A stretch of DNA of 64,000 nucleotides from Thermoplasmatota archaeon. Lineage in GTDB: Archaea; Thermoplasmatota; Thermoplasmata; UBA10834. Below the pieces are notes generated by a model, which saw nothing but the letters and a program-made list of their open reading frames with translations, did no database searches and was not told the DNA's origin. The position numbers were made by a program, and so were the translations under genes. Of this stretch, positions 53,483 to 57,093 are shown piece after piece. Position 1 is the stretch's first letter; every line of letters starts with the position of its first letter. The stretch covers positions 236,452-300,451 of the forward strand of contig CAWFTI010000001.1 in assembly GCA_963818745.1 (NCBI GenBank), read 5' to 3'.

Positions 53483-53505
53483 ACTATCCACAGGGCATGT
53501 AGACC
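53483..53505 (+). repeat. conserved 24-bp archaellin-upstream element, copy 1 (23/24 identical)
   Basis: (G)ACTATCCACAGGGCATGTAGACC lies 190 nt upstream of the arlB1 ATG. Confidence 0.9.
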
Positions 53506-53694
53506 TCTTTCGGGAGTGAGCGAGAGAAGAAGAACGGGCGGATAGGCCAGCGGAGTGTTCTGGCATCAACGACCTGCCGATCAGCTTGAAGACCCATGAG
53601 GCCCCCCTCCACGGGCCTCACCAGGGTCTTCTCAGGTCGTTGGCATCGGATCCTCCGCAGGCCTATGTACCGCCGCACCGAAGGAGGTAAAGAA

Positions 53695-54312
53695 ATGAAG
53701 AAGATAATGGAACCTAGACGGGTGCGGATGGACGACCGCGGCGATATGGGCATCGGGACCTTGATCATTTTCATCGCCCTGATACTAGTATCCGCTGTGG
53801 CCGCGGGTGTGTTGGTCCAAACCGCATACACGCTTCAGCAGCAGGCGGAAGCGACGGGCGATCAGGCGATAAAGGAGGTGTCCACAGGCCTCAAGGTACT
53901 AGCGCTGTACGGGATGACCGACGGCAACATGACCTACATCACAGACCTGTACATGAAGGTCGCACTGTCGGCAGGCAGCCCGGTGATCAACCTCTATGAT
54001 CTAATAATAGAGATATCCACCGGGATAGCGGACTCATCGTTGAGCTACACGGACTCGGCGACGCCGGGGACGGGCTATTTCAACGTGACGTCCATCAGAG
54101 ACACCTACCCGTACAATATCTGGACCGCGACGGATGTGGGCATAACCCAGGGCGACATCGCCTTGATCCACATCAACCTGACGGCCCAGGGCATGGACCT
54201 GAGGACGCAGCAGGATGTGAACGCCCTGCTCATACCGAAGCACGGCATACCCACATTCGTGATGCTGACGACACCGTCTGTGTACTCCAACATATACGAA
54301 CTGCTGGACTGA
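53695..54312 (+). CDS. arlB: archaellin (FlaB/ArlB) 1
   Basis: ATG lies behind AAGGAGGT. Class-III signal peptide ..DDRG|[26 protein letters not shown]-terminal [14 protein letters not shown] archaellin core. Confidence 0.9.
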
Positions 54313-54342
54313 GGATGACCTGAACGAACGGAGGGCAAGAGC

Positions 54343-54813
54343 ATGGACGAAGAATACAGGAGGTCGGCGCTCGAGTACATGAGCGTCGATTTCAGGACCA
54401 ACCTAGTCGTGATGCGCTGGCTCACGTTCCTGCTTGAGAAGGTCAAACGGGAAGCACTGCCCGACCTGTTCGGGTACTACGAGCGGATCGGGTGGATGAG
54501 CGAACGGGTCAAGAACATGCTGGTGCAGGTGTCCGAGGGGGCGAAGCCCTCGGAGAGGCCGCCCCAGGAGGAGATCGTGATCGACGAGGACGTCGAGGAC
54601 CACAGCCTCCTGCTGTCGAAGGAGCCCATCAAGGGCTCCAAGAAGGCACTCAGGGAGGAGACCGGCTGGCAGCTCACGCCCGAGGACCACATCAAGTCCT
54701 GGGCGTTCCTGATGGAGATCAAGGGCGAGCCGGTGGACAAGAACCTCTGGTGCGACCTCGAGACCCGGATCGACAGCTTCGAGTTCAGCGTAGAGGAGTA
54801 CTACAGGATATGA
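54343..54813 (+). CDS. stand-alone ArlD/E (FlaD/E)-domain protein
   Basis: VVMRWLTFLLEKVKREALPDLFGYYERIGWMSERV and ..WQLTPEDHIKSWAFLMEIKGEP.. parallel the C-terminal domain of the 58187 gene (VMRWIEFLFERV..YYVDVGWISEDV..LSAEDHLKSLLFIQKIAG). Confidence 0.7.
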   Translation: MDEEYRRSALEYMSVDFRTNLVVMRWLTFLLEKVKREALPDLFGYYERIGWMSERVKNMLVQVSEGAKPSERPPQEEIVIDEDVEDHSLLLSKEPIKGSKKALREETGWQLTPEDHIKSWAFLMEIKGEPVDKNLWCDLETRIDSFEFSVEEYYRI

Positions 54814-55031
54814 CCGGCGGACCGTTCGGCAGGCAAGCGTGATGTGAGAGGCGAACTTAGCACAGGGCAGCGTCCAGGGTTGGATGGGACCTCGGTCCGG
54901 ACAACAAACCCCTTCAATGTTCTAATTTTCCGAAGCGCCAGCGGTGATTGTCGCGCATGAAAATCACGGCTGAGGTTCATATATACTGACGAGCGGGATA
55001 GTAGATGGAGAAGCCTCCACGCATCTCGGGG

Positions 55032-55055
55032 CACTATCCACAGGGCATGTAGACC
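55032..55055 (+). repeat. conserved 24-bp archaellin-upstream element, copy 2
   Basis: CACTATCCACAGGGCATGTAGACC lies 135 nt upstream of the arlB2 ATG. The TATA-like TTCATATATACT at 54976..54987 precedes it. Confidence 0.9.
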
Positions 55056-55189
55056 GTAGGCTCTCGTCCCAACGACGAGACCAGTGACCTCGGAACCGGG
55101 GTCCATCGATTCTGATAGTGTCTTGAGACTGAGAGAGCCGTCTATCGACTCTGCCGGTCCCATGCCCTCTGAAAAAGGAGCGGTCTGGG

Positions 55190-56909
55190 ATGTCTCTGCA
55201 CAAGATGCAACGGAACCTGAATGCTGACGAAGAAGGCGACATCGGTATCGGTACACTGATCATATTCATCGCGATCGTGCTGGTCGCAGCCATCGCCGCC
55301 TCACTCATATTGTACGCGGCAGCGTTGCTCCAGCAGCAGGCCCAGAAGACCGTGGATGAATCCGTTTCGGAGGTGTCCGGAGGGCTCGCGGTGATCAACA
55401 TAGCGGGTGACAGGAACCCGGCCGGTGCGGATTCCGTGATAGTCTCCGCGTACATGCCGTCGGCGGACGAACAGGCTCCTCTGGCAGGGGTTCTCTACAA
55501 TGTGACGGCCAGCGGGGACGGGACCTCCCCCCTCGTTATGGTTCTGAACTGGTCCTCCGCGACGGACTACGGTTCGGGGCTGTCCGAGGAGATAGTCTAC
55601 AGGACCTCGGTCTACGACCCGACCAACCCGTCATCGTTCAATGAGCAGGTCGCGAGGAACAGGCTCCTGACCCTCGACCAGATCGACTCCAGCTACGAGC
55701 TGGTCAGGTTCGATTCCGGCTTCGGGCCGGCAGTCCAATACTCCGACTACTCGGTAAGGGACGATAATGCCACATCGTACGCCTATGCCGTCGTGGGTGT
55801 CGACAATGCCGGGAACAGGGTCCTCTACGGGGCCATCGACAGCTCGGCATCGACTATCGACACGACCCAGGACGAAGACAGGACCGCGCCTTCCGGAGGT
55901 TCGATGACCAGCACGGCCAAGCCCGACGATTACTCTGTGGCCCTCTTCTGGGTGCCCGCGTCCGACGCGGGGAGCGGCGTCAATGCCCAGTACCTGTACA
56001 GGAGCGAGGTTTCCGTATCCGCCCCCGGGACGGTCGATCGTTGATGGCAGGACCAGGCTGGTCATGCCCGATGCGACGCTTCTGGCTGAATTCAACGCGA
56101 CGGTCTCGAGCTACGTCGATTCTCCGCCAGCAGTCGGAGATTACACGTACTTCGTCGTCGCAGAGGACAGCTCCGGCAACCAGGCGTACCTCGGCTCGCT
56201 CACGTACACCGCCACCGTCGCGGACAGCGGGTCCCCGACACCCGTTTCCGACCTATGCATGCATCAGTCCCTCCAGGCGGTCTCCCTGACATGGACGAGC
56301 GGCTCGGACGAGGAGACGGATGTCAGAGGATACTGTGTGTTCAGGGCGGCCAGCGTAGCCGAGCTCGACAGCATCGAGGAGCTGCTGTCGATGAGCCCGC
56401 TCGCAATGCTGGGGGCCGATGCGACCAGCTACGATGATTACTCTGGGTCGAGCGGGAGACTGTACTACTACACGGTCGTGACGGTCGATTCCGCAGGCAA
56501 CTACGCCCAGCCAGTCGTGGCCACGAACACCATTCAGATGATCGAGATCAAGGTGAAGACCGTTCCTGGGAGCGACCCGATCGTCTTCACCTCCCTCATG
56601 ATCGAGATCACCGACGGCGAGAGGGACGCGACGCTTCGGTTCAACGCCGGAACCTACGGCCCTGAGGGCGCCACCAACACGAGCTTCTCCGTCGAGATCC
56701 TGAGGGACCCGGACAGTGTGTTCGCAACCACGTATTCGCTCACAGACGGCGGCCTGGTCAAGATATTCATCGACGCGGGAGAGATCGGCCTGAACCTGCA
56801 CGCGGAGTCGTCGTTCATGATCAAGTTCATCCCGAGCTTCGGGCAGCCGACGATCGAGGAGTGCATGATCCCGTACCTCGGGACGTACAGGTACATCAAC
56901 CTGGTGTAA
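55190..56909 (+). CDS. arlB: giant archaellin (~570 aa) with three FN3-like domains inserted (one +1 frame break near 56.03 kb)
   Basis: N-terminus ..EEG|[23 protein letters not shown]-terminal archaellin core IQMIEIKVKTVPGSDPIVFTSLMIEITDG..KFIPSFGQPT. The ~355-aa insert carries three W..D.GSG..Y.(V/L)YR / Y.Y.V..D..GN repeats. The break lies at the C5G3 run at 56022. Confidence 0.8.
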
Positions 56910-57069
56910 TGCGGTTCTGGACACATCCAGATGAGCCAGTACAAACCTCTTCCATATTTCTGATTCCACCCCAGCGTGAATCACGGCATGAGAATCATCT
57001 CTCGCTGTCTCTTTCAATATTTGTATCCGACCCTTTAAGATATTATTCTCCGTTAGTCAGAATGAGAGA

Positions 57070-57093
57070 GGTCTACATGCCCTGTGGATAGTG
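57070..57093 (-). repeat. conserved 24-bp archaellin-upstream element, copy 3 (inverted)
   Basis: The + strand reads GGTCTACATGCCCTGTGGATAGTG, the exact reverse complement of copy 2. It lies about 340 nt upstream of the arlB3 ATG and directly after the TATA-like TTTAAGATATTATT (57034..57047). Confidence 0.9.

Follow-up and report, generated by a model that had tools for sequence, protein, structure and literature searches.

The window analysed here, a stretch of 64,000 nucleotides (nt) from a Thermoplasmatota archaeon of the order UBA10834 (GenBank assembly GCA_963818745.1, contig CAWFTI010000001.1, positions 236,452 to 300,451 of the forward strand), contains an archaellum locus in which a 24-nt element (the 24-mer) precedes each of the three archaellin genes, in sense orientation before arlB1 and arlB2 and inverted before arlB3. 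The comparative evidence, namely a covarying fold, coordinated changes between the copies, G.U intermediates and cofolding, tilts us towards reading the 24-mer as an RNA-RNA pairing element that would link the 5' leaders of the three archaellin mRNAs. This was one of three readings offered in a first-pass annotation of the same DNA, in which the arlB3 leader was seen as antisense to those of arlB1 and arlB2. The coordinates of all features are collected in Table 1.

A pattern search of the window located the 24-mer exactly at copies 2 and 3, as the first-pass annotation had reported, and gave no match in 100 dinucleotide shuffles. Copy 1 differs in its first base only, G for C; its identity of 23/24 and its strand agree with the earlier description, while its start moves from 53483 to 53482. 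The copies end 189, 134 and 339 nt before the start codons of arlB1 (ATG 53695), arlB2 (ATG 55190) and arlB3 (ATG 57433), in keeping with the approximate 190, 135 and 340 nt given before. Moreover, the three copies are the sole matches in the whole 1.57-Mb assembly when up to three mismatches are allowed, and all of them lie before archaellin genes. Alignment of 400 nt around the copies revealed no similarity among them beyond the 24-mer, which bears out the remark that their flanks are only loosely similar; however, the flank of each copy is conserved across genomes at its own site, and therefore the constrained island at each site exceeds 24 nt, so that the claim of constraint on the 24-mer alone was too narrow.

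The order UBA10834 is related to the Methanomassiliicoccales (bioRxiv 10.1101/2020.03.09.984617). Among 49 species genomes of this order of the Thermoplasmata, 18 contain the 24-mer (three or fewer mismatches), while the reversed pattern, used as a control, has no match in the same 49, and the archaellin family PF01917 is present in exactly the same 18 genomes; the motif is thus kept before archaellins in the archaellated genomes of the order. Twenty loci were compared, comprising 17 from genomes, two divergent metagenomic ones found via wHTH_B homologues (L179 and L183) and one from a metagenome scan (L076), the latter being the one true copy in 120 loci returned with a 14-nt core that is too short for that collection. 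The layout is constant, with the element in plus orientation before arlB1 and arlB2 and inverted before arlB3. In a more divergent lineage (L184, 8150-8190) the element of the arlB1 leader is altered (GGACTTCCACGGGCATGCAGAGC; copy 1 reads ACTTCCACGGGCATGCAGAG), and the contig stops before copies 2 and 3. Giant arlB2 homologues with 34-37% identity over the full length occur in another family of the class, apparently the Aciduliprofundaceae (L168-L175, including L170 of G051), where they mostly stand alone, distant from other arl genes. Since no inverted repeat was found flanking these homologues, the element is confined to the order UBA10834.

In alignments of the three intergenic regions from 17 genomes, with transcription starts inferred from the usual archaeal TATA-to-start spacing, the block of strong conservation that contains the 24-mer begins about 23 nt past each TATA box, and the onset of conservation in each region coincides with the predicted transcript start (near 53441-53446 for arlB1). 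In these genomes a distance of 26-60 nt separates the conserved TATA boxes from the element downstream of them, and the earlier observation that each copy follows an AT-rich TATA-like box holds at all three sites. Counted from the predicted starts, it would begin at about +8 in arlB3 (5-9 nt after the start), at about +20-22 in arlB2 and at about +40-45 in arlB1, that is, within the 5' leader of each mRNA.

The 5' domain of the arlB3 leader is predicted to fold into three helices, in which P1 is formed by GAGAGAG and CUCUCUC, the P2 hairpin (GUCUACA-UGCCC-UGUGGAU) lies wholly within the inverted 24-mer, and the P3 hairpin opens with the final 3 nt of the 24-mer. Across P1-P2-P3, 98.8% of cells are paired and seven pairs are changed on both sides, whereas slid controls reach 38-69% and none of 500 shuffles matches the domain in any measure. 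P2 holds U.G and G.U pairs, which on the opposite strand would give A/C mismatches; hence the fold belongs to the strand of the arlB3 mRNA. For the whole leader, RNAalifold predicted 65 pairs from 17 arlB3 leaders, 17 of them with compensatory changes. When a covariance model of the 5' domain (R1) was run against 401 genomes from the class, as well as the extra loci, it placed the domain at arlB3 leaders and, beyond these, at one related arlCDE-like leader only; each of the 18 archaellated genomes gave one strong match and L179 and L183 gave further ones, together with weak reverse-strand matches on copies 1 and 2 and two marginal matches (E about 0.0015) in other families. No Rfam 15 covariance model matched the region 52600-58200 of the window up to E=1. 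We therefore regard the arlB3 leader as a predicted new structured leader RNA, backed by covariation and belonging to no Rfam family, which in its modelled form looks like a riboswitch-sized regulatory RNA. Its invariant GGAGGUGAG and CACUCCCC boxes could pair mutually or with the Shine-Dalgarno sequence, and the further covarying hairpins of the leader correspond to columns 240-366 of alignment A2.

Two marks of antisense pairs are found between the leaders. The first is extended complementarity, which between arlB2 and arlB3 amounts to 28 bp, as copy 2 with its four upstream bases is a continuous complement to 57070-57097 (perfect in genus g2), and between arlB1 and arlB3 to 23+7 bp, as copy 1 is complementary at positions 2-24 and again over 7 nt downstream (TCTTTCG) in genera g1 and g2. 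The second is coordinated substitution, in which positions 2, 4, 19 and 23 change in all copies of a genome, with G.U intermediates. Both G002 and G038 have T>C at position 19 in every copy; L179 carries A>G at position 2 and T>C at position 4 in all three copies, together with a change of the P3 partner from U-A to C-G; and in G038 position 23 is changed from C to T in both copies along with the B-box of the arlB2 leader. Where copies 2 and 3 differ within the helix, the difference gives a G.U pair on the mRNA strands (position 24 in g4, position 2 in G008, position 1 in G017 and L076, position 4 in G038, position 11 in L183, and the flank in g1). Throughout the main clade the helix is free of A/C mismatches; the only ones are in the two divergent loci, where the helix frays at its ends. 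Furthermore, when the arlB3 5' domain is cofolded with the leader of arlB2 or of arlB1, the net gain is 11-32 kcal/mol in 15 of 15 genomes after the cost of local unfolding is paid, and the loops UGCCC (antisense) and GGGCA (sense) are complementary.

The sense leaders carry internal partners of their own. In the arlB2 leader the A-box and B-box together form a split, degenerate copy of the antisense element, and they pair with copy 2 in 94% of cells (about 35% when slid). Matched changes are seen in two genomes: in G008, A>G at position 2 goes with T>C in the A-box, and in G038 the change at position 23 goes with G>A in the B-box. In the single-sequence fold only, the B-box alternatively pairs with the Shine-Dalgarno region, which suggests that sequestering the 24-mer would close the ribosome-binding site of arlB2. 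The arlB1 leader has a weaker partner box, GGATAGGCC (GGATAGG), whose partnership with position 4 is U-A in the main clade, U.G in L183 and C-G in L179; support for its internal helix GGACTATCC / GGATAGGCC is only moderate, and two g4 genomes lack it.

We envisage that the arlB3 mRNA would display the antisense copy at its very 5' end as hairpin P2 with parts of P1 and P3, while the arlB1 and arlB2 leaders would display the exact complement, otherwise held by their weaker internal boxes. The arlB3 leader would then base-pair with each of them over 24-31 nt, the contact probably beginning loop to loop before both partners refold, and pairing would couple the translation or the stability of the archaellin paralogues. 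Alternatively, the antisense sequence could act in cis, being read through from arlB2 as a 3' trailer; between the arlB2 stop codon and the element there is no conserved T-run in g1 and g4. A more specific version, in which the arlB3 leader would be a trans riboregulator whose contact with the leaders of arlB1 and arlB2 grows from a loop-loop start into a duplex of 24-31 bp and displaces the partner boxes near the ribosome-binding sites, so that the three filament subunits, including the giant arlB2, are set against each other, is put forward only tentatively and we think it doubtful. Like the transcription starts, which come from TATA spacing, the RNA contact and the sign of its effect are what we infer from sequence, and so is the step from leaders that are complementary and conserved to leaders that would pair and regulate.

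Several observations weigh against the pairing element. A 59-bit match to the covariance model, with a different P2 sequence, lies before an arlCDE-like gene in L180 (1046-1155), and no sense partner of this P2 was found within 10.7 kb; since the fold exists there without a partner, it has a function independent of pairing. In g4 and the divergent loci copy 1 pairs over the first 16-18 nt, its 3' half being degenerate in g4, and the arlB2 copy is complementary over only 20 nt in L179 and 14 nt in L183. The element is mostly invariant, so that the covariation within it comes from few events in three divergent lineages. Coordinated changes of the copies would also be expected from a single co-evolving DNA-binding protein or from gene conversion, and the imperfect dyad inside the element (TCCACA-N5-TGTAGA) could be used by a dimeric protein.

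Kissing-loop antisense systems are known from plasmids, such as CopA/CopT and RNAI/RNAII. The archaellin leaders resemble these in having perfectly complementary stem-loops, in which a loop-loop contact can seed the duplex and complementarity is kept by compensatory evolution; they differ in that both would-be partners are mRNA leaders, from paralogous structural genes that lie at separate places on one strand of an archaeal genome and are thus encoded in trans. Functional base pairing between untranslated regions (UTRs), or between mRNAs, is also known, examples being the UTR interaction of haloarchaea and the 5'/3' pairing of Staphylococcus icaR. As there, a leader would pair with a distant complement; if arlB2 were read through to 57093, the 28-bp helix would close the arlB2 mRNA on itself. 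Here, however, the complement is also the 5' end of the structured leader of the next gene, and the sense element is present before a third gene, arlB1, as well. The arrangement also resembles archaeal rRNA-type processing stems, in that a gene of high expression lies between inverted repeats some 2 kb apart, which could give a long helix in the precursor. A bulge-helix-bulge processing stem was nevertheless rejected, as the helix between the copies is continuous in all genomes and lacks the two 3-nt bulges that define the substrate of the splicing endonuclease.

To our knowledge, control of archaellum synthesis has been described almost only at the level of transcription, the known regulators being EarA in methanococci and Thermococcales, the Arn network in Sulfolobus and CsmR in Haloferax; how a cell balances several archaellin paralogues against one another is a question of its own. 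Antisense pairing in which the leaders belong to paralogous structural genes would appear to be a new arrangement, here in an order of uncultured archaea. If the trans riboregulator were true, archaellins would have their first described circuit of post-transcriptional cross-talk, and Archaea an antisense mechanism acting from one mRNA leader to another. If the pairing element as such is right, it would be a compact case of archaeal mRNAs regulating each other via their leaders, and it would give a handle on how the 570-residue giant archaellin is dosed against the ordinary ones. If pairing fails, the same data indicate an unusually long and invariant protein site. In any case, the locus offers a defined 24-nt element, a new structured leader RNA and a separate candidate operator box.

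That protein site is the rival that survives best, and we consider it fairly unlikely. A DNA-binding protein, an adjacent winged helix-turn-helix (wHTH) regulator or another, would bind the double-stranded 24-mer just past the promoter as a repressor or roadblock, and its orientation would be irrelevant since the site is quasi-palindromic. Two conserved wHTH genes always flank the locus, the element has an imperfect dyad, repressors can bind past the start site (PMC5512572), and the copies change together as they would if one protein read them all. However, invariance at 24 of 24 positions over three genera, including the non-symmetric spacer and the flanks, is unusual in an operator; T>C at position 19 weakens the dyad, yet P2 survives it through a G.U pair; on the mRNA strand, the differences between copies are compatible with G.U pairing; the distance from the promoter varies from about +8 to +45; and the copy before arlB3 is part of an RNA fold that covaries.

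In addition, a classical operator site is already held by another sequence. A GAnAATCA box stands upstream of the TATA box in all three archaellin promoters, as an inverted repeat, direct repeats or single boxes, and again in the intergenic region of the two wHTH genes (window 52248 and 52781). Of the 26 occurrences of the form TGA[AGT]AATCA in the genome, four fall within 5 kb at this locus, the wHTH intergenic region included, and the boxes are conserved in all relatives. Homologues of wHTH_B with about 70% identity occur in other loci beside an arlCDE-like gene and a Ras-like GTPase, without archaellins, and these loci keep the GAnAATCA boxes at both promoters and show no trace of the 24-mer core. 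Thus, the box tracks the regulator, while the 24-mer tracks the archaellin genes, and the GAnAATCA box is likely to be the operator of the wHTH regulators, for which it is our candidate; likewise, the inverted repeat in the arlB2 promoter is likelier to be a protein operator than the 24-mer is. This second kind of locus, with a wHTH_B homologue, an arlCDE-like gene, a Ras/Arf-like small GTPase and no archaellins nearby, is represented by L180 and also by L176-L178 and L185-L187.

The first-pass annotation had proposed an EarA-like operator of the adjacent wHTH regulators, pointing to TACATG in the complement of the 24-mer. Published EarA sites measure 6-8 bp, occur as one to four repeats 9-11 bp upstream of the B recognition element (BRE)/TATA and activate transcription (PMC10665913, PMC5512572), with a TACATA-like core and, in Thermococcales, the consensus A(C/G)(C/G)TACA(T/C) (PMC10665913). 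As with the EarA sites of Methanococcus maripaludis and Thermococcales, a short conserved sequence lies by the first archaellin genes and a small HTH gene adjoins the operon, and the complement contains CTACATG, which matches TACATA at five of six positions, although a 5/6 hexamer is weak evidence. Unlike EarA sites, the 24-mer is single at each promoter, 24 nt long, invariant and placed downstream of TATA and the predicted start. The GAnAATCA repeats, and not the 24-mer, occupy the place expected of an activator site, and they stay with wHTH_B; an EarA-like operator is accordingly not supported for the 24-mer. The sources do not give the wHTH homologues the name EarA, and they are set beside it by description only.

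It is unlikely, in our view, that each copy works only in its own leader, as a local fold or as a hairpin for an RNA-binding protein, with the complementarity between leaders a by-product of common origin. The arlB3 copy does fold into P2 and P3 alone, those of arlB2 and arlB1 each find partner boxes within the same leader, and the L180 leader has its fold without a sense partner. But a hairpin and its reverse complement are different RNAs that one protein would not both read, and the sense copies, which form a poorer hairpin (a C/A mismatch, and a second one in G002 and G038), are as strictly conserved as the antisense copy. Moreover, exact complementarity over 24-31 nt, kept by coordinated changes in three lineages, would be needless for independent folds, and tandem gene duplication cannot yield an inverted leader segment.

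Site-specific recombination or gene conversion, which the first-pass annotation had also suggested, would let copies 2 and 3 invert the arlB2 segment for phase or antigenic variation and copies 1 and 2 allow deletion. Perfect 24-bp inverted repeats about 2.0 kb apart do bracket arlB2 in every genome and the copies are homogenised within genomes, but arlB2 is co-oriented with its neighbours in 20 of 20 loci from four genera and several metagenomes, inversion would strip arlB2 and arlB3 of their promoters, and the repeats lie within conserved RNA folds. No recombinase was found at the locus and no tyrosine or serine recombinase on this contig; in the genome, the serine recombinase family PF00239 has no match and the two tyrosine recombinases (PF00589) are on the other contigs C3 and C4. 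We judge this explanation very improbable. Mini-open reading frames (antisense AUG-CCC-UGU-GGA-UAG, encoding MPCG-stop about 6 nt behind a Shine-Dalgarno-like GAGAGG, and a sense start-stop AUG-UAG), at which ribosome loading would control the downstream gene, are both visible in the sequence but hardly credible, and were rejected because the stops are not conserved: the antisense stop is lost in G038 and L179, where the frame continues (UUG, UGG), AUGUAG becomes AUGCAG in G002 and G038, and there is no synonymous variation, so the constraint is on nucleotides. A likeness of TCCACAGGG to archaeal origin-recognition boxes was dropped as well, since an orc1/cdc6 gene and an AT-rich unwinding element are both lacking and the sequence is strictly promoter-proximal.

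Table 1. Features of the archaellum locus, in positions of the window
Feature	Position	Strand	Remarks
24-mer, copy 1	53482-53505	+	GACTATCCACAGGGCATGTAGACC; sense, predicted arlB1 5' leader
24-mer, copy 2	55028-55055 (24-mer 55032-55055)	+	GGGG + CACTATCCACAGGGCATGTAGACC; sense, predicted arlB2 5' leader
24-mer, copy 3	57070-57093	-	arlB3 mRNA (+) strand reads GGTCTACATGCCCTGTGGATAGTG, antisense to copies 1 and 2
arlB3 5' leader, whole (predicted)	57062-57432	+	about 370 nt; further covarying hairpins, conserved GGAGGUGAG / CACUCCCC boxes
arlB3 leader 5' domain P1-P2-P3	57064-57128	+	covarying fold (predicted)
A-box, arlB2 leader	55114-55124	+	GATAGTGTCTT (GATAGTGYC); complements 5' half of copy 2 and upstream GGGG
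B-box, arlB2 leader	55157-55168	+	GTCCCATGCCCT; about 20 nt before Shine-Dalgarno; complements middle and 3' part of copy 2
arlB1 promoter	53380-53435		TTATTTTC-N6-GGATTTCA repeat; TATA-like CTTATTTTATC 53411-53421; half-box GACAATCA 53428-53435
arlB1 promoter across genomes			alignment: box TGATTTTCT-N5-GAGAATCA; TATA TTTTCTAT; CATGATAATCA after TATA
arlB2 promoter	54945-54966		inverted repeat TGATTGTC-N6-GAAAATCA, upstream of TATA 54977-54988
arlB2 promoter across genomes			alignment: box TGATTTTC-N6-GAAAATCA; TATA CTTATATAA
arlB3 promoter	56976-56997		GAATCAC-N5-GAGAATCA, upstream of TATA TTTAAGATATTA 57034-57045
arlB3 promoter across genomes			alignment: box GAATCAC-N5-GAGAATCA; TATA TTTAAGATATAT
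wHTH_A	52284-52622	-	small wHTH, HTH_20/ArsR-like
wHTH_B	52903-53244	+	small wHTH, HTH_20/ArsR-like; divergent from wHTH_A
arlB1	53695-54312
ArlD/E-like gene	54343-54813
arlB2, large	55190-56909		split by one frame break near 56040
arlB3	from 57433		several frame breaks
arlCDE, arlF, arlG, arlH, arlI	downstream of arlB3

The gene order is the same in every locus and runs Lrp, a coiled-coil open reading frame, wHTH_A, wHTH_B, the element in plus orientation, arlB1, the arlD/E-like gene, the element in plus orientation again, arlB2, the element in minus orientation, arlB3, arlCDE, arlF, arlG and arlH, the wHTH pair thus adjoining the archaellin genes throughout. Pfam assigns HTH_20 to one of the two wHTH proteins and nothing to the other, and NCBIfam gives nothing significant. 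Frame breaks are found in arlB2 (one, at 56040), arlB3 (four, 57433-58066), arlI (62470-62846) and the gene for aldehyde:ferredoxin oxidoreductase (45690-45801). Since arlB2 is intact in all relatives (585-632 residues), the breaks in the window are probably indel errors that arose in assembling long reads; those in arlB3 are so densely clustered that they may reflect real decay. A coiled-coil protein of 368 amino acids (orf368, 51027-52133, minus strand) with a poly-Glu tract and no Pfam family is a constant neighbour of the wHTH pair throughout the archaellum loci of the order, occurs also in related wHTH loci and may be part of the regulatory module; its weak NCBIfam match to an IS110 transposase (E 0.019, 14 bits, over the coiled-coil stretch) was judged to be noise. 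Finally, a second ArlI-like ATPase gene (63580-63999) directly follows arlI and extends past the end of the window.

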